DNA of 64,000 nt from contig CAVVKJ010000010.1 of assembly GCA_963748815.1 (NCBI GenBank), positions 928,001-992,000 on the forward strand. Reading direction: 5' to 3'. This DNA is from an uncultured Gemmatimonadales bacterium. Its GTDB lineage: Bacteria; Gemmatimonadota; Gemmatimonadetes; Gemmatimonadales; GWC2-71-9. The notes beneath the pieces are model-generated. The model searched no databases. It was given only the letters and a program-made list of their open reading frames with translations, and had not been told where the DNA came from. This document shows positions 4,364-53,690 of the stretch, piece by piece (the stretch's first letter is position 1; each line of letters opens with the position of its first letter). The translations under genes were made by a program, and so were the position numbers.

Positions 4364-5593
4364 CTACCGCACCCGCGTGATCCGCCCCTGGCGATCGACC
4401 CCGCGAATCGGTCCGGTCCGCAACTGTTCCCGCAGGTGCAGCATGCCCACGCCTGCCGCCCGCGGGGCGGTCGGGGAACTCGGCACGGTATAGGGGTCCG
4501 CCGTCGTATAGTCGACCGTGTAGGCCAGATCGGCGAGCGACCCGATCGAGATCGCGCTGAGCGGATTCGACCCCAGGTTGATGTATCCCGTCATCAGCTC
4601 ATTGACCATGACCGTTTCACGCCAGTGCCCGTCCTGCGTCCCGGGGCCACCGGTGTTTTCCACCGGCACGGGAAAGAGGCCGGGATAGGCAATGGAACCG
4701 CCCGCTGCATTGTAATACGAAATGGCCGAGCTGCCATTGAAGTAGGTCGAATCGGTCCCGCCGAAGGTCAGCAGTGACGGCGTGACGTAGGTCCAGAGCG
4801 AACCGAGGCCGAGGACGTGACCCATCTCATGGAGGATGACGGGCTTGAGGAGGTTCAGCGATTCGAGCTGCGGCATGTCCGCCGAGTCGAAGGTCATGTC
4901 TCCCACCAGCGTCAGGTAGCTGGGAAGCCGGACCCAGCAGGGGGACGCGCCGCCGAGAATGCCGCTCGGTCCATCGATGGGGGCCACCGAGGCGTAGATC
5001 AGCACCGACGTGATGGCCCGATCGATGGGAGGCGTGTTCTCGCCGCAGCTCGCCGAATCCGCGATGACCGTGTCGGCGGGAAAGTCCGCAACGACGATGC
5101 TGCTCCACCGGGCCGCCGCGTCGAGGAACGCCGCCCGCTGCGCTGGCGTCACCGCCGTGAGGAACTGTACCTCGACGCTGAAGGTGCTGGGGACCGCCGT
5201 GCCGAGGGTGGCGAAATACACCACGGCCGCCGTGTCGCCCGGGAGCGAGGCGATCGTCGTGTACCCGCTCATCGTGCTGCCCACGGTCCGCGTCACCGAC
5301 GTCTGTCCCAGCGCATTCGTCACCGTGGCACCAGCCGAGATCGTGCCGCCCCCCGTCGCGGACCAGTTGACGCTCGCGCCGGCGACCGGCATGCCGTCGG
5401 CGTCGTTGACCTGCACGACCAGCGGGAGCGCCGCGGTCTGGTTGAACTGCGCGTTCTGACCATTGCCGGACACCGCGACCACCGCGACCGGCTCCGGCGC
5501 CGGTTCCGGCGCGTTGCTGTCGCTGGAACACCCCGCCATCAGCCCCATCCCTGCCATGAGCCCGAGCAGGCTCCTGCCCTGATTCCACCGCAT
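4364..5593 (-). CDS. Lipoprotein with Ig-like domain + leishmanolysin (M8)-like zinc metallopeptidase
   Basis: Start MRWNQ preceded by GGGAG; lipobox LMAGC; HEMGHVLG, GGPGTQDGHWRE and NELMTG motifs. Confidence 0.85.
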   Translation of the reverse strand: MRWNQGRSLLGLMAGMGLMAGCSSDSNAPEPAPEPVAVVAVSGNGQNAQFNQTAALPLVVQVNDADGMPVAGASVNWSATGGGTISAGATVTNALGQTSVTRTVGSTMSGYTTIASLPGDTAAVVYFATLGTAVPSTFSVEVQFLTAVTPAQRAAFLDAAARWSSIVVADFPADTVIADSASCGENTPPIDRAITSVLIYASVAPIDGPSGILGGASPCWVRLPSYLTLVGDMTFDSADMPQLESLNLLKPVILHEMGHVLGLGSLWTYVTPSLLTFGGTDSTYFNGSSAISYYNAAGGSIAYPGLFPVPVENTGGPGTQDGHWRETVMVNELMTGYINLGSNPLSAISIGSLADLAYTVDYTTADPYTVPSSPTAPRAAGVGMLHLREQLRTGPIRGVDRQGRITRVR

Positions 5594-43990: not shown

Positions 43991-44767
<777 letters not shown>

Positions 44768-44773
44768 CGGGCA

Positions 44774-45169
44774 TCACCTTTCGCGATACGGCGCCAGGGC
44801 GCCCAGGTGGGTCGCCAGCGCCAGCGTGAGCGAATCGAAGCTGGCCTCGAACTCGCTGAAATCCAGATTGTCCAGCTCGAGGGTGTCCGTCAGGACGACG
44901 TGATCACCCTCCACCCCGTAGGATCCGTGCACCAGGTCGGTCGCGTTGTACTCCAGCAGCTGCCGATAGAGCTCCGCGCGGCGGGCCGGTTCGCCCGGCA
45001 GCGCCATCACCCGCACGCGGAGGATCAGGACGGGTGGGGAGAAGCTGACCACCACCTCCGACTCCTCCGACGTCCGCACCTTCCAGAGCCCGTCTTCCAG
45101 TTCTTCGACAGTCCCCCCGGCCGCTTCCATGCGGTCCAGGAACGACTGGACGTCATCCCGTGTGACCAT
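44774..45169 (-). CDS. CesT/Tir-chaperone-like (T3SS chaperone fold) protein
   Basis: Acidic 131 aa; LYRQLLEYNA.DLVHGSYG...VVL.DTL.L.NLD..EF pattern. Confidence 0.72.
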   Translation of the reverse strand: MVTRDDVQSFLDRMEAAGGTVEELEDGLWKVRTSEESEVVVSFSPPVLILRVRVMALPGEPARRAELYRQLLEYNATDLVHGSYGVEGDHVVLTDTLELDNLDFSEFEASFDSLTLALATHLGALAPYRER

Positions 45170-45221: not shown

Positions 45222-45569
45222 TCAATTGGGGGGGAGTCGCGATGGCTCCTCGGCGCGCTGCCGCGCCAGCAGCCGTTCCGTGAAGTCCAGGCGCTCCTCA
45301 AGTTCGACCATCCGGTTTCGCATGTCGTACAGCTCGTCCAGTACCTCCGGATGGGGCTCGGCCTGGGCCATCGTCCCCTGGTGGATGCGGGCCGCCAGCG
45401 CCTTGCCGAGTGGCCCCTTCAGCACGACCGCCCCGACCACCCCGCCGGTGATCAGCGCCGGAATCGCGAAGTCCTCGCCGATCACGACGGAGAGCGCGAT
45501 GAACGCGCCGAGCATGACGACGCTGACGATCGTGATGGCGGTGTACAGCGGGACGTTTGATTCCCTCAT
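45222..45569 (-). CDS. Array member 11: 2-TM protein with ELEERLDFTERLL coiled coil
   Basis: 115 aa; close paralog of member 10. Confidence 0.85.
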   Translation of the reverse strand: MRESNVPLYTAITIVSVVMLGAFIALSVVIGEDFAIPALITGGVVGAVVLKGPLGKALAARIHQGTMAQAEPHPEVLDELYDMRNRMVELEERLDFTERLLARQRAEEPSRLPPN

Positions 45570-45901
45570 GACAGTCGCTCCGGTTCGCGGGCCTGTGCCA
45601 GCAGCCGTTCGGCGAAGTCGAGCCGCTCCTCAAGCTCCAGCACGCGGTTTCGAACCTCGTCCAGCTCCTCGATCAGCTCGACCGGTACCTCGCTGGGCGC
45701 GGTGGCCACGCTGCCAATGCGCTGGGCGAGGGCCTTGCCCAGCGGGCCCCGGAGGACGACGCCCCCCACCACGCCGCCGGTGATCAGCGCCGGAATCGCA
45801 AAGTCCTTCCCGATCACGAGCGAGAGCAGGATGAACGTTCCGAGCAAGACCCCGCTGATGACTCCGCTGGTGATGTAAAACGCTTCGTTGGGCGACTTCA
45901 T
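45566..45901 (-). CDS. Array member 10: 2-TM protein with ELEERLDFAERLL
   Basis: 111 aa; ATGA overlaps on both sides. Confidence 0.85.
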   Translation of the reverse strand: MKSPNEAFYITSGVISGVLLGTFILLSLVIGKDFAIPALITGGVVGGVVLRGPLGKALAQRIGSVATAPSEVPVELIEELDEVRNRVLELEERLDFAERLLAQAREPERLS

Positions 45902-46255
45902 CTCAGCCGTTCCGGTTCGCGGGCCTGGGCCAGGAGCCGTTCGGCGAAGTCGAGCCGCTCCTCGAGTTCGTGCAGCCGAAGTTCGCCCTGTTCCAGCTGC
46001 GCCAGCCGTGCCTCCACGTCTGCAAGCCGCTCAGCGGTGAACTCCCCGCTCGATGCGGGCGGGAGTGCCCGGAGCGCGAAGTGCCGGCGCACCCCAAGCA
46101 CGACTAGGGACGTGCCGCCGACCGCGGCGAGCATCGCCGACGCCGCGCCGTGGCTGAGGAACTGGGCACCGACCGTCATCACGGCCACGGTGACGCCGAT
46201 CGTGAATCGTCAGGTCGATTCCGTCGAGTCCGAATGTCCGCCTGATCCAGCTCAC
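45898..46255 (-). CDS. Array member 9: 2-TM protein with ELEERLDFAERLL; frameshift near 46200
   Basis: MSWIRRTFGLDGIDLTIH in one frame; remainder in the 45898..46188 frame. Confidence 0.8.
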
Positions 46256-46632
46256 CGGGGCGCCTCCAGCCGATGGGGCTCTTCCCGCGCCTGCGCCAGC
46301 AACCGCTCCGCGAAGTCGAGCCGTTCCTCCAGTTCGTGTACGCGATAGTTCAGGGCGTCGACTTCGTTGAGTCGGGCGTCGAGCTCGGCCAGCCGGTCGG
46401 TAATCACCTCGCCGGTGATCTCCCCGATACCGCCCTGGGGTCCGCGTTTCAGGGCAAGATGCCGGCGGATGCCGAGGACGACCATCGAGATCGCTCCGAC
46501 ACCGGCCACCAACGTCTCCGGGTTCTCCGGGCCGGCCAGACTTCCGGCGACGATCATCATGAAGCCGGTCACGCCGACCTGAATGACGATGTCCACCCCG
46601 TCCAGTCCGACGAGCCTTCGGATCCAGCTCAC
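46252..46632 (-). CDS. Array member 8: 2-TM protein with ELEERLDFAERLL
   Basis: 126 aa, MSWIRRLVGLDGVD... Confidence 0.85.
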   Translation of the reverse strand: MSWIRRLVGLDGVDIVIQVGVTGFMMIVAGSLAGPENPETLVAGVGAISMVVLGIRRHLALKRGPQGGIGEITGEVITDRLAELDARLNEVDALNYRVHELEERLDFAERLLAQAREEPHRLEAPR

Positions 46633-47000
46633 CGCCCCTCCTCGAGCCGGGCGCGCTTCTCCCGTTCGCTCACCAGCATCCGCTCGGCGAAATCCACCCG
46701 CTCCTCGAGTTCGTGGAGCCTGGCCCGTTCCTGCTCCAGCTGATGGAGCCGGTCGTCGAGCTCCTCCAGCCCCGCCTGGCCGCCGGCGGGCGGGAGGGCG
46801 CGCTGCCTGGCCCGTCCGACAAAGATTCGGGCAACCAGCAGGGCGGCCGACGCCGATAACAGCATCGTGGCGAGAAAGTCGCCGTCGTAGTTGAACTCGC
46901 CGCCGGCACCGCCCACGATGACCGCCACGACGACCGACACGCCCACGTGAATCGTGATGTCCTTGCCGTCGATGCCGAAGATTTCACGAATGCGGCTCAT
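46629..47000 (-). CDS. Array member 7: 2-TM protein with ELEERVDFAERML
   Basis: MSRIREIFGIDGKDITIHVGV; 3' part of the 46629..47537 ORF. Confidence 0.85.
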   Translation of the reverse strand: MSRIREIFGIDGKDITIHVGVSVVVAVIVGGAGGEFNYDGDFLATMLLSASAALLVARIFVGRARQRALPPAGGQAGLEELDDRLHQLEQERARLHELEERVDFAERMLVSEREKRARLEEGR

Positions 47001-47290
47001 TTGCCCTCCTCGATTCTTGCCGGCTCCCGACCCTGCGCCAGCAGCCGCTCTGTGAAGTCGAGGCGCTCCTCCAGCTCGGCCATCCGTTGGTAGACCAGGT
47101 CGGTCTCGCCGGTCACCGGCCGCGTGGCCTCGAGCGCCTCGAGGCGCGCCTCCAGCGCCGCCGGCACCGCCCCGCCGCGCACCCGGTCGGCCAGCGCCTT
47201 GATGACCGGCGACATCGCCGCCCAGAAGGCGACGTTGATGACGCCGATCGCGATCCAGAACGCGAAGTCGCCGATGCCGTCGCCCATCAC
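46997..47290 (-). CDS. Array member 6: 1-TM protein with ELEERLDFTERLL
   Basis: 97 aa; SPVIKALADRV helix. Confidence 0.85.
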   Translation of the reverse strand: MMGDGIGDFAFWIAIGVINVAFWAAMSPVIKALADRVRGGAVPAALEARLEALEATRPVTGETDLVYQRMAELEERLDFTERLLAQGREPARIEEGK

Positions 47291-47574
47291 TCGCTCCTGG
47301 CGTGAGGGTCGGGCCGCCGGGGCTCTGCGCCGGGAGGCGGAAGAATCCGCTCGGCAAAGTCCACCCGCTCCTCCAATTCGAGCATCCGGTGCCGCAGTGC
47401 CTCGACCTCCGCCAGGCAGGCGTCGAGCTCGGCGGCCAGCGCCGGGTCCGTCCCTCGGCCCGCGATCCGCTCTGCGATCGCCTTCCCGATCGGCCCGGCC
47501 AGGATGAAGGAACCAGCCCAGGCCAGCACGAAGACACCGAGAATCGAGACGCCGAAAATCACACCAGGTTCCAC
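47287..47574 (-). CDS. Array member 5: 1-TM protein with ELEERVDFAERIL
   Basis: 95 aa; GPIGKAIAERI helix. Confidence 0.85.
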   Translation of the reverse strand: MEPGVIFGVSILGVFVLAWAGSFILAGPIGKAIAERIAGRGTDPALAAELDACLAEVEALRHRMLELEERVDFAERILPPPGAEPRRPDPHARSE

Positions 47575-47586
47575 GTCGCCCCCCGC

Positions 47587-47874
47587 CTACGAACCGATCC
47601 GCGGCTGCTCACGCTGCTGCGCGAGGAGCCGCTCGGTGAAGTCCAGCCGCTCCTCGAGCTCGTGGAGCCGGTCGACCTGCTGCTCCAGCTCGGCCACGCG
47701 CCCCTGGAGCTGCTTCGAGGTCTGGCAACGCCTGCGCATCCGCTTGCCCATTGGTGCCCTCGATCCGACGGGCCCACGCCTTTCCCAAGCGGGCCGCGGA
47801 GAATGATGACCCCCGCGACGGAGAACATCAGAAGATCCGCTCACAAAGATGCTCGCAATGTCGCCCGACCCCAT
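47587..47874 (-). CDS. Array member 4: 1-TM protein with ELEERLDFTERLL; internal compensating frameshifts
   Basis: TM and GPLGK lie in an alternate frame (47559..47828); C-terminal motif is in the main frame. Confidence 0.75.
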   Translation of the reverse strand: MGSGDIASIFVSGSSDVLRRGGHHSPRPAWERRGPVGSRAPMGKRMRRRCQTSKQLQGRVAELEQQVDRLHELEERLDFTERLLAQQREQPRIGS

Positions 47875-47886
47875 GGTGCCCCGTCG

Positions 47887-48249
47887 CTAGTGTGGGAGCC
47901 GGGCCTGCTCACGCTGCTGCGCGAGGAGTCGCTCGGTGAAATCCAGTCGCTCTTCGAGCTCGTGGACGATGCCCTGGCGCTGCTCGAGGTCGGCCACTCG
48001 CGCGCGCAGATCCTCGAGCTCAGCCAGGACCATCGGATCCAGACGCTGCTTCCCCTCGATCCGCCGCGCGATGGCGCGGATGAGCGGGAAGGTGATCAGC
48101 GCCGTCGCGGCGAAGAACCCCAACGCGATCATGACGACCGCCGGCGTCCCGAGGAACGCCCAGGGTGGCAGGACTTCCATGGGGGGCAACGGCGGAATCG
48201 GTGCGACCACCACCTCGCCCTGCGCCAGCAACGGCCAAATTCCGATCAT
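47887..48249 (-). CDS. Array member 3: Pro-rich N-terminus, 1 TM, ELEERLDFTERLL
   Basis: 120 aa; FPLIRAIARRI helix. Confidence 0.85.
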   Translation of the reverse strand: MIGIWPLLAQGEVVVAPIPPLPPMEVLPPWAFLGTPAVVMIALGFFAATALITFPLIRAIARRIEGKQRLDPMVLAELEDLRARVADLEQRQGIVHELEERLDFTERLLAQQREQARLPH

Positions 48250-48509
48250 CGTGCACCTCCAGGCGGCAATCCGGCCACGTCCCGCTGTTGGGCAATCAGT
48301 CGTTCGGCAAAATCCAGCCGCTCCTCCAACTCCAACATCCGATCACGCAGCGCGTCGACCTCCTCGGGCAGGTGCGCATCGTGTGACGGCACACCGCCAC
48401 CTTCGAGTTTCCGCAGCAGCGCCTTCCGTATCGGCACCGCGAAGAAGAAGACCAGCGCGATGCCGGAAGAGAGCAGCATCATCATGGCGATGAATTCTTC
48501 GTGCGGCAC
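48246..48509 (-). CDS. Array member 2: 1-TM protein with ELEERLDFAERLI
   Basis: 87 aa; GTG start with GAGGAG SD. Confidence 0.85.
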   Translation of the reverse strand: MPHEEFIAMMMLLSSGIALVFFFAVPIRKALLRKLEGGGVPSHDAHLPEEVDALRDRMLELEERLDFAERLIAQQRDVAGLPPGGAR

Positions 48510-48520
48510 GGCGCGCTCCT

Positions 48521-48778
48521 CTAGCTCGGCGGAAGTTGAGACGGGTCGCGGCGCTCGGCCAGCAGCCGCTCGGTAAAGTCCACTCGCTCGTGCAACTCCG
48601 ACATCTGCGCCCTCAGATCGTCAATCTCTGCGAGGAGCTGCGGGTCGGGCGGGGCCAGTTCATGGGTCTTGGCCCGGATCCGCTCGGCGTACGCCTTGCC
48701 GATCGGGCTGATGGAGAGCAGGAAGACGGTTCCGCCCCCAAAGATGAAAATGATGGCCAGTACGCCTTCCATGTCCAC
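48521..48778 (-). CDS. Array member 1: 1-TM protein with ELHERVDFTERLL
   Basis: 85 aa; SPIGKAYAERI helix; GGAG SD. Confidence 0.85.
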   Translation of the reverse strand: MDMEGVLAIIFIFGGGTVFLLSISPIGKAYAERIRAKTHELAPPDPQLLAEIDDLRAQMSELHERVDFTERLLAERRDPSQLPPS

Positions 48779-48806: not shown

Positions 48807-48833
48807 TACGGGGTAACGTTTCAATTTGTTTCA
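48807..48833 (-). promoter_or_regulatory. ECF (sigma-W-like) promoter candidate for the array-pspA operon
   Basis: Minus strand TGAAAC-N17-CGTA in an AT-rich spacer; second TGAAAC 10 bp downstream of the first. Confidence 0.55.
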
Positions 48834-48853: not shown

Positions 48854-49738
48854 TTAACTGCTTTTGCCAGAATGCTTTATCTGGACGAGTCGCTCTCTGG
48901 CCAAGCGCCTCCCGGTCGGGGTCGCGGCCAGCCCACCCCCGGCTGTCTCACGATACCGCACGTCCATCGAGCGGCCAATCTCCCCCATTGTATCGATCAC
49001 CTCGTCGGCCGGGATGGGGAACTCGATCCCGGCGAGCGCCATCTCGATGGCCGCCAGCGCAATCGCCGCCCCCGTCGCGTTCCGAAAGACGCAGGGGATC
49101 TCCACGAGCCCCCCGAGCGGGTCGCAGACCAGCCCCAGGGTGCCCTGCATCGCCAGGGACACGGCGTGCGCCGCCACCGTCGGCGATCCGCCGAGCACCT
49201 CCACCCCGGCCCCGGCGGCCATCGCCGCCGCGGCGCCGGTTTCCGCCTGGCAGCCGCCTTCCGCCCCGCTGAGCGAGGCCCGCACGGCCACCACCGCCCC
49301 GATCAATCCCGCCGTGGCCAGCCCCCGCACCAGCTGCTCGTCCGTCGCGCTGCCGCGTCCGGCCAAACCGAGGAGCACACCGGGCAGCACCCCCGCCCCA
49401 CCGGCGGTCGGCGCGGCCACGATGACCCCCATGGCCGCGTTGACCTCCTGCACCGCGAGGGCACTCGCGAGGACCTCCGTGAAGAGGGTCCCGGAGAGCG
49501 GTCCCGTCAAGCGGTTCAGCTTGGCGGCGTCGCCCCCTACCAGCCCGCTCACGCTTCGCAGATCGCCCGGGAGTCCACGGGCCACCGCCCCACGCATCAC
49601 CTCGAGCGCGCGCGCCAGCCCCCCTTCCAGCTCGGCCCGGCTGCGCAGCCCGTGCGCCACCTCGCGCCTGAGCGCAAACTCGCCCAGCGAGATCCCTGCC
49701 GCTTCGGCCTGGGTCACCGCGTCGTTCAGGGACTCCAT
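48854..49738 (-). CDS. sdaAA: L-serine dehydratase alpha subunit (Fe-S)
   Basis: AAPTAGGAG, GAEGGCQAE, GLVCDP.GGLVEIPC, YRETAGGGLA. Confidence 0.94.
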   Translation of the reverse strand: MESLNDAVTQAEAAGISLGEFALRREVAHGLRSRAELEGGLARALEVMRGAVARGLPGDLRSVSGLVGGDAAKLNRLTGPLSGTLFTEVLASALAVQEVNAAMGVIVAAPTAGGAGVLPGVLLGLAGRGSATDEQLVRGLATAGLIGAVVAVRASLSGAEGGCQAETGAAAAMAAGAGVEVLGGSPTVAAHAVSLAMQGTLGLVCDPLGGLVEIPCVFRNATGAAIALAAIEMALAGIEFPIPADEVIDTMGEIGRSMDVRYRETAGGGLAATPTGRRLARERLVQIKHSGKSS

Positions 49739-50406
49739 CAGCCGTCCACCCTTCCGATCGCCCGGACGCTCTGCACGCGAGGCAGGGCGAGCAACGCCGC
49801 CAGCGCCTCGGCGCCGACGGCCTCGTCGAGCTCGTAGATGTGAATCGCGTGCCCGCCCTTTTCGCGTCGGGACACCTTGATCGTCGCGATATTGCCGCCC
49901 TGCGCCGCCAGCGTGGTCGTGATGGCGGCGACGGCGCCCGGCTGATCGATGGCGACCACCACGAGCGCAGGGAGGGTGCCGGTGATTTCCACCGGGTAGC
50001 CGTCGATGCTCGTGATCACGATGCGGCCGGCACCGATGGACGACCCGACGACGGTGACCTGGCGCTCGTCGCGCGCGAGGGTGAGGCGGGCGGTGTTGGG
50101 GTGGTGATCGCCGCGCAGCTTCGTGTTCTCGAAGGTGACGGCCATGCCCGCGTCGGCCGCCAGCTCGAGGCTCTCGCGCAGCCGCTCGTCGTCGGGCCGG
50201 AAACCAAGCAAGCCCCCGACGAGGGCGCGGTCGGTGCCGTGCCCCTGCCCGGTGCGCGCGAACGAGCCGTGCAGCTCGATGCGCGCCCGATCGGGCTGGC
50301 CGCCGAGCAGCGCCCGGGCGAAGAGGCCGATGCGGCAGGCCCCCGCCGTGTGGGACGACGAGGGCCCGACCATCACCGGTCCGATGATATCAAGGAGTGA
50401 GATCAT
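49738..50406 (-). CDS. sdaAB: L-serine dehydratase beta subunit (ACT domain)
   Basis: DIIGPVMVGPSSSHTAGA, GHGTDRAL, HPNT and SSIGAG motifs. Confidence 0.94.
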   Translation of the reverse strand: MISLLDIIGPVMVGPSSSHTAGACRIGLFARALLGGQPDRARIELHGSFARTGQGHGTDRALVGGLLGFRPDDERLRESLELAADAGMAVTFENTKLRGDHHPNTARLTLARDERQVTVVGSSIGAGRIVITSIDGYPVEITGTLPALVVVAIDQPGAVAAITTTLAAQGGNIATIKVSRREKGGHAIHIYELDEAVGAEALAALLALPRVQSVRAIGRVDG

Positions 50407-50409
50407 TCG

Positions 50410-50625
50410 TCAGAGCAGTTCCACCTGCTGGATGTCGCCGAGGGACAACGCGATTTCCGTGTCCTCGACGCCGAGAGGCCGCAGGTAGACCTCGTGGGCG
50501 GTCACGTGGGCGTCGAGCGACGTCGGGATGCCCGAGATCTCGGTCGTGTCGGAGAGGACAATCCGGACCGGCTGGTCGTGGTCCCCCGCGTACCCCAGCA
50601 GGCTGACCACTTCGTCAAACGTCAT
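50410..50625 (-). CDS. Small hypothetical protein (possible Sm-like beta fold)
   Basis: MTFDEVVSLLGYAGDH...IQQVELL, 71 aa, GGAGG SD. Confidence 0.6.
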   Translation of the reverse strand: MTFDEVVSLLGYAGDHDQPVRIVLSDTTEISGIPTSLDAHVTAHEVYLRPLGVEDTEIALSLGDIQQVELL

Positions 50626-50696: not shown

Positions 50697-53567
<2,871 letters not shown>

Positions 53568-53690
53568 AGCCTTGGAGGATACCCCGGACCGGCATCGGGA
53601 TTCAACTCTCCCCGCGAGACGCCGGGAGGCCGGCCGTTCCCTTTTCCGGCGCCCCCAGACACTTTTCCTCATTCCGGGGTTCGTGAACCC

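Follow-up and report, generated by a model that had tools for sequence, protein, structure and literature searches.

The stretch analysed here (the window) comprises 64,000 nucleotides from the genome of an uncultured Gemmatimonadales bacterium and carries on its minus strand, at positions 45222-48778, an array of 11 consecutive co-directional small open reading frames (ORFs), followed by a CesT_Tir_1 gene and then by pspA. We numbered the array members g1 to g11 in reading order. The initial annotation had described 11 co-oriented genes leading, through short overlaps and gaps, into the CesT-like gene and pspA, and the coordinates, the junctions and the Pfam matches agree with this description. 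The features of the block, all on the minus strand, are as follows:

48807..48833, minus strand: extracytoplasmic function (ECF)-type promoter-like motif TGAAAC-N17-CGTA, 28 nucleotides before the g1 start codon
48521..48778, minus strand: g1, 85 amino acids (aa), one transmembrane (TM) segment, PIGKAYAERI, tail ELHERVDFTERLL
48246..48509, minus strand: g2, 87 aa, one TM segment
47887..48249, minus strand: g3, 120 aa, proline-rich N-terminus followed by one TM segment
47587..47874, minus strand: g4, a 95-aa ORF in the window with three frame changes; corrected form 94 aa
47287..47574, minus strand: g5, 95 aa, one TM segment
46997..47290, minus strand: g6, 97 aa, one TM segment
46629..47000, minus strand: g7, 123 aa from the ATG at 47000, two TM segments, N-terminus MSRIREIFGIDG
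46252..46632, minus strand: g8, 126 aa, two TM segments, N-terminus resembling those of g7 and g9
45898..46255, minus strand: g9, one frameshift near 46199-46202; the window ORF is 96 aa from the GTG at 46188, the corrected form 118 aa
45566..45901, minus strand: g10, 111 aa, two TM segments
45222..45569, minus strand: g11, 115 aa, two TM segments, a paralog of g10
44774..45169, minus strand: CesT/Tir-like (YbjN-like) gene, 131 aa; PF22550 (CesT_Tir_1) E 5.8e-26, PF10722 E 1.1e-4
43991..44767, minus strand: pspA, 258 aa; PspA_IM30 PF04012 E 1.2e-50

Seven of the array junctions are 4-nucleotide overlaps and the other three are gaps of 11, 12 and 12 nucleotides, while 52 nucleotides separate g11 from the CesT-like gene and only 6 separate the latter from pspA. 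Terminator-like sites are not enriched within the block (2 found against 2.6 expected), and none of them stands out. GGAGG-like ribosome-binding sites for the next gene were observed inside the last codons of the preceding one (LEEG.., PPGG..), for example at 47001-47020 and 46633-46652.

As given in the window, g4 contains three frame changes and g9 one, and the start at 46255, from which the apparent g8/g9 overlap arises, does not share a frame with the g9 tail. The positions given for all ORFs in the initial annotation stand, with the correction that g4 and g9 are frameshifted in the window. The contigs of runs X1 and X2, from one study, have one base fewer at 47713, 47789, 47834 and 46202, and those of runs X3 and X4, from a second study, have one base fewer at 46199; the depths of these run contigs are low, about 4-10. 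Omission of the extra bases gives an intact 94-aa g4 with its TM segment and juxtamembrane motif, and an intact 118-aa g9, which is read intact in the contigs of all four runs from the two studies. The corrected g4 and g9 each match their ortholog in G138, a genome of the same genus, in which both orthologs are intact. Since the frames are restored without the extra bases and the orthologs are intact, all 11 array genes are most likely intact in nature, and the window contains either consensus errors or a variant at the four extra bases. The assembly may hold similar insertion or deletion errors elsewhere. In a further genome, G150, the g9 ortholog (L012 1985-2370) reads in three frames, as a possible pseudogene or an assembly error.

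The proteins share a simple architecture. By hydropathy scan, one TM segment is found in g1, g2, g3, g5 and g6 and two in g7, g8, g10 and g11; the uncorrected window forms of g4 and g9 have none and one, respectively. The 1-2 TM segments per protein reported initially are therefore recovered, for g4 after frame correction, and the juxtamembrane helix motif described as usual (P-x-G/I/R-K/R-A) is present in 8 of the 11 proteins, being absent from g7, g8 and g9 and visible in g4 only in its corrected form. In the alignment of the 11 tails, the residues E, L, E, R, D, F, E and R of EL.ER.DF.ER are invariant. Of 147 representatives of the family, 116 carry a single TM segment and the other 31 carry two, and lysine plus arginine residues (K+R) are in excess after the last TM segment, as compared to before it, in 113 of the 116 one-TM members (mean K+R 3.27 after the segment and 0.14 before) and in 29 of the 31 two-TM members. 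From this bias the positive-inside rule predicts an N-out/C-in topology and hence a cytoplasmic tail.

An AlphaFold2 model of g10 (mean predicted local distance difference test score, pLDDT, 87.8) shows helices at residues 6-30, 32-51, 53-65 and 74-103, the last of which, the tail helix, has pLDDT values of 91-98. Read from the sequence of this helix, its hydrophobic residues follow a 3-4 heptad spacing and make up a stripe that excludes the invariant E, R, D and F, which suggests that the latter form a conserved exposed face. The ER.DF.ER core is unchanged throughout the 111 tails of loci that contain cesT and the 21 tails of loci that lack it. That the same core is kept regardless of cesT points to a partner that is always present. 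A complex prediction of PspA with the tail of g10 (residues 51-111), run without controls, scored 0.02 and is evidence neither way, and a PDB sequence search with the family profile returned only TM/coiled-coil noise (best E 0.057).

Six genomes of the genus contributed 51 copies to a tree of the paralogs, which was built on only 85 columns and in which many other forks are open. Copies cluster by position and not by genome, the ortholog groups have Shimodaira-Hasegawa-like approximate likelihood ratio test (SH-aLRT) supports of 94-100, and the 11 copies of the window need 11 changes; on this tree, the paralogs are old orthologous lineages and not recent copies. An ortholog of g1 is found in 5/5 same-genus genomes examined (support 97), and g5 sits on a long branch without a clear ortholog in the five same-genus genomes. 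The variable membrane part and constant tail already noted in the initial annotation are evident among the window paralogs, whose 45 pairs (those with g4 excluded) show 34% identity in the TM part and 80% in the tail. Between orthologs (15 pairs, window against G138 and G150) identity reaches 78% in the TM/juxtamembrane part and 94% in the tail, and each membrane part is thus itself conserved between species. At DNA level, the tails of different copies are 60-75% identical, with the exception of g3/g4 (90%), and every invariant tail residue is written with at least two different codons. Because the DNA is divergent and the invariant residues are encoded by varied codons, the constancy of the tail reflects selection on the protein and not recent gene conversion. 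Copy number in the array varies from 7 to 12 per genome within the genus; moreover, the order of g9 and g10 (window 45566-46255) is reversed in G138 (L011 2005-2702), therefore the array has also been rearranged, besides gaining and losing copies.

A profile built from the 11 proteins recovers each copy at E values from 1.8e-21 to 4.2e-32, which speaks against a chance arrangement, and no Pfam or NCBIfam model matches the 11 small proteins above its cut-off. With the threshold at E<=0.001 the same profile matches 2986 representatives of clusters made at 50% identity; at 1e-10 the number is 740. The source labels of these members are 'hypothetical protein', PilO or FtsB, and the named organisms are Gemmatimonadales. 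This is an unnamed and undescribed family, so far found in Gemmatimonadota. Its distribution was surveyed in 201 Gemmatimonadota genomes, in which f1 denotes the bacterial family of the window. In f1 a match is present in 96/96 sampled genomes, with 2-19 matches each; this count includes the unpublished genomes G057 and G182, and without these two is 94/94. Matches in other families occur in 12/23 genomes of f7 (mostly single and weak), 2/3 of f3, 2/4 of f4 and in f2, to which we return below.

The linkage to pspA was counted in the 69 f1 genomes with listed match coordinates (G057 left out), which were searched for PF04012. All 69 contain pspA, in most f1 genomes as the sole PspA match, and in 66 of them pspA is preceded, within about 3.5 kb of the same contig and on the same strand, by a family match, so that the pspA link on which the initial annotation had built holds across the family f1. 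In the three exceptions pspA is at the start of another contig (G108 and G156) or on another contig (G137). Twenty fetched f1 loci contain an array of 2-12 profile matches, which runs into cesT-pspA in 14 loci and straight into pspA in the other 6; the link between array and pspA is thus kept without cesT and with differing upstream genes. Outside f1, one f6 genome (L040) has uvrA, a single divergent member of 86 aa and then cesT-pspA, and in one f5 genome cesT-pspA is preceded by a weak member, with a three-gene array located separately. Since outgroups hold the CesT-PspA dyad without the array, the dyad predates the array and is more widespread; the array is an addition expanded in f1.

The neighbours of the array are uvrA, serine dehydratase and a DUF1611 gene, and no phage genes are found nearby. 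Here uvrA is separated from the array by the alpha and beta genes of serine dehydratase (window 48854-50406 and 50697-53600, minus strand); in the outgroup families uvrA directly adjoins either cesT-pspA or the lone small gene. A small conserved ORF of ~71 aa (MTFDEVVSLLGYAG...), for which no Pfam match at 1e-5 was found, is located at window 50410-50625 (minus strand), between uvrA and the serine dehydratase genes. In L016-L018, L025 and L029 a close relative immediately precedes the array promoter.

The promoter-like motif before g1 recurs upstream of the first array gene of the other loci: among 21 loci the TGAAAC form is found in 14, TGACAC in 3 and TGGCAC in 1, and the motif or a close variant is thus present in 18/21, against 0.045 expected in shuffles. 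Genome-wide, there are 11 strict motifs where about 2.6 are expected from base composition. The strict motif precedes cesT-pspA in 1/10 outgroup loci of genomes lacking the array (L044). In the parts of PMC5758882 that deal with these elements, TGAAAC (-35) and CGTA (-10) are B. subtilis ECF promoter elements, and CGTA is tied to sigma-W. The array motif resembles the B. subtilis sigma-W promoters described there in both elements and in the 16-17 nucleotide spacer; it differs in the phylum to which it belongs, and in being a putative promoter, predicted from sequence. Matches to the sigma-54 pattern with 2 mismatches are 42 against 58 expected, none of them before the array, and a sigma-70 scan gave one site, within the g1 start.

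Elsewhere in the genome (G000 C5:463829-465000) there is an ECF sigma gene, and the gene after it is anti-sigma-like and encodes an H-x3-C-x2-C motif. Three of the 11 TGAAAC-N16/17-CGTA motifs (C5:464427, 470446 and 475236) are within 11 kb of this sigma gene, one of them before a 342-aa protein and one before a 166-aa secreted-looking protein. The C5 pair and its nearby motifs are a candidate regulator and regulon, with the pair not tied to the array promoter; at <=1 mismatch, the array promoter motif was not found upstream of the C5 ECF sigma gene.

Small membrane proteins are known beside other PspA homologs. LiaI and PspM have an anchoring role for PspA-family proteins. Both LiaI of B. subtilis and PspM of M. 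tuberculosis are named as transmembrane Psp partners in the pertinent part of Ravi et al. (mSystems 2024, PMC11237479). The array resembles them as a set of lineage-specific small membrane proteins beside a pspA homolog and under an envelope-stress regulator; on the other hand, LiaI and PspM are single genes and not arrays, and have no meaningful sequence relation with the family (the PspM model NF047839 matches 2/147 members at E about 0.005).

The same article already puts the CesT/Tir-PspA dyad in print, and the window shares with it a CesT_Tir-type gene directly before pspA, at 6 nucleotides and on the same strand. The section of PMC11237479 on the dyad names as its partners band-7/flotillin, an AAA+ ATPase, YqiJ/YuaF, spermine-synthase operons and polyamine genes, and lists no small TM/coiled-coil array. 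The term Gemmatimon* has no occurrence in the main text and one supplement of that paper, its web-app tables being outside the search, and none in the main text of PMC9239133, for which the OpARA data files were outside the search. A literature search on PspA together with Gemmatimonadetes, Gemmatimonadota or Gemmatimonas gave nothing relevant. As for the novelty claimed initially, the literature searched holds no paper describing such an expansion of a Psp locus, and the claim stands for the small-protein array; the dyad that follows it is already on record.

We suggest, with a probability of about 0.5, that the block is one envelope-stress operon and that the small proteins are membrane-anchored partners of PspA; co-transcription of the block, the topology of the proteins and their binding to PspA are what we infer from the above data. 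An ECF-type promoter would drive the 11 small membrane-protein genes, the CesT-like gene and pspA as one operon. Each protein would consist of a paralog-specific membrane part with 1-2 TM segments, in most cases a short basic juxtamembrane helix and, in all, a cytoplasmic helix of ~30 residues, in which a heptad core is combined with an invariant face of charged and aromatic residues (ER-DF-ER). The common tail would offer a single docking or oligomerisation surface for PspA, or for PspA held by the CesT-like protein, and the differing membrane parts would place this same surface in different membrane settings. Such proteins would be a functional parallel to PspB/PspC, LiaI or PspM, whatever the descent from PspB.

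Several observations weigh against this proposal. Four further copies of the family are present in the same 3.16-Mb genome and are unlinked to pspA (profile matches at C11:21502-21768, C11:36391-36687 and C11:38815-39201, plus strand, and at C8:about 4478-4708, minus strand); the strict promoter motif is near none of them. Three f7 genomes have uvrA-cesT-pspA without the small gene, and their only good family match is hundreds of kb away. The f2 genomes carry cesT-pspA with no family gene in front in 5/5 cases examined, and a family match was detected in only 1/38 genomes of f2. The family is, in other words, dispensable for the CesT-PspA dyad. In addition, synteny inside one bacterial family can persist by descent alone, and both the binding to PspA and the expression of the small proteins are proposed from sequence and synteny. 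Finally, the matches to PspB models discussed below are under the cut-off and no commoner than those to GspM, and may reflect only the combination of a TM segment and a coiled coil.

The unlinked copies, the orphan single copies of f7 (among them a 90-aa protein that carries the motif, L034) and the dyads without the family in f2 and f7 would be expected if the small proteins were co-regulated but independent effectors, which share a promoter with PspA and form a membrane-stabilising or sub-membrane coiled-coil scaffold of their own, with no contact between the two. The regular heptad core read from the tail helix also suits self-association. We consider this possible, though somewhat unlikely: the tight same-strand linkage to pspA in 66/69 genomes, and its survival of the absence of cesT and of changes in the upstream genes, argue for a closer relation, and the fact that the exposed ER-DF-ER face never varies hints at a heterologous partner in common.

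PspA is the bacterial ESCRT-III. A bolder form of the proposal, which we put forward tentatively and regard as unlikely, is that the array is a receptor repertoire for this protein, with many inputs and one output. The membrane part of each old paralog would partition to, or sense, a different lesion or protein, the paralogs would hetero-oligomerise through the shared heptad helix, and the ER-DF-ER face would nucleate or release PspA at these sites, with the CesT-like protein as a holder. The proposal of the initial annotation, that each paralog may detect a different insult and that the tail would signal to PspA, is likewise a putative one.

The initial annotation had compared the proteins with PspB, and here the predicted topology is indeed alike. 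Like PspB, the array members are small bitopic proteins whose genes form one block with pspA, and for which an N-out/C-in orientation with the C-terminal helix in the cytoplasm is predicted. They could then be true, very divergent and multiplied PspB orthologs that act with a PspC-domain protein encoded elsewhere; a single PspC-domain match was obtained in the genome, on a different contig (C5:114534). Within the array, the PspB model TIGR02976 has its best match in g1 (E 1.6e-5, profile positions 4-68 of 75), with lesser matches to g4 (E 0.027) and g5 (E 0.077), and it matches 19/147 family representatives at E<=0.01, the best at 3e-6. When the family alignment was compared by hhalign with 20 enterobacterial PspB sequences, the tail aligned in register with the PspB helix (P 3.9e-4), and the nearest named cluster in a protein atlas is a PspB cluster (0.81), no more than a lead. 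Duplicated PspB genes within psp operons are, moreover, on record in the relevant part of PMC11237479.

Every one of these scores, however, is under the curated cut-off (25.1 bits for g1 against 51.7). The other PspB model, PF06667, has no match at E<=1 for the 11 proteins and 1 match among the 147 representatives, and the GspM model NF040576 matches just as often (21/147, best E 1.5e-5). The hhalign probability is 35.6% over 26 columns, against a low-diversity alignment of sequences that are all enterobacterial and at least 72% identical to E. coli PspB. The array genes are upstream of pspA without an adjoining pspC, unlike in the proteobacterial pspABC order, the family has 2-19 copies per genome whereas PspB occurs once or twice, and the ER-DF-ER motif, invariant in the family, is absent from enterobacterial PspB. 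The homology to PspB is thus inconclusive, and descent from it distinctly unlikely in our opinion, whereas the likeness in predicted topology, size and gene context is real.

An identity of the GspM, PilO or FtsB type, as some of the database labels would have it, was rejected, as the charge bias predicts the opposite topology (those proteins are N-in, with a periplasmic coiled coil) and the genomic context is pspA, not secretion or the divisome.

That the products are holin-like or otherwise toxic membrane peptides countered by PspA, in a toxin/immunity or lysis cassette, is very improbable: size, 1-2 TM segments and a charged C-terminus do resemble holins, and g10 has a weak PHROG holin match (E 0.005), but this is a match in 1 of 10 scanned proteins, at chance level (PHROGs gave two chance-level matches), PADLOC found no match for the array, the neighbours are housekeeping genes, and the array is a stable chromosomal one of old orthologous paralogs. 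The concatenation of alleles from several strains during assembly, which the initial annotation had named as an option that could overturn it and to which the four single-base differences between the window and the public contigs might be ascribed, is refuted by the comparative data, as the 10 other copies are only 26-48% identical to g1, every copy has its own ortholog in other species, the junctions are covered by contigs of four runs, and the same layout recurs in single-contig genomes, for example G127 and G142.

To our knowledge, how PspA is recruited to damaged membranes outside the proteobacteria and Firmicutes is largely unknown. With 2986 clusters at 50% identity, the unnamed protein family of this locus is large, and it is tied to pspA across one bacterial family; its mutable 13-residue motif, together with 11 natural variants of the membrane part, makes both the partner of the tail and the specificity open to direct test. 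The family also merits a Pfam or NCBIfam model, as its genes are now labelled hypothetical or mislabelled as PilO or FtsB. If true, a receptor repertoire would be a targeting mode not known for any PspA, Vipp1 or ESCRT-III protein. The array represents, in conclusion, a real, conserved and undescribed small membrane-protein family in an operon-like block with pspA, for which a role as membrane partner of PspA is the most probable.

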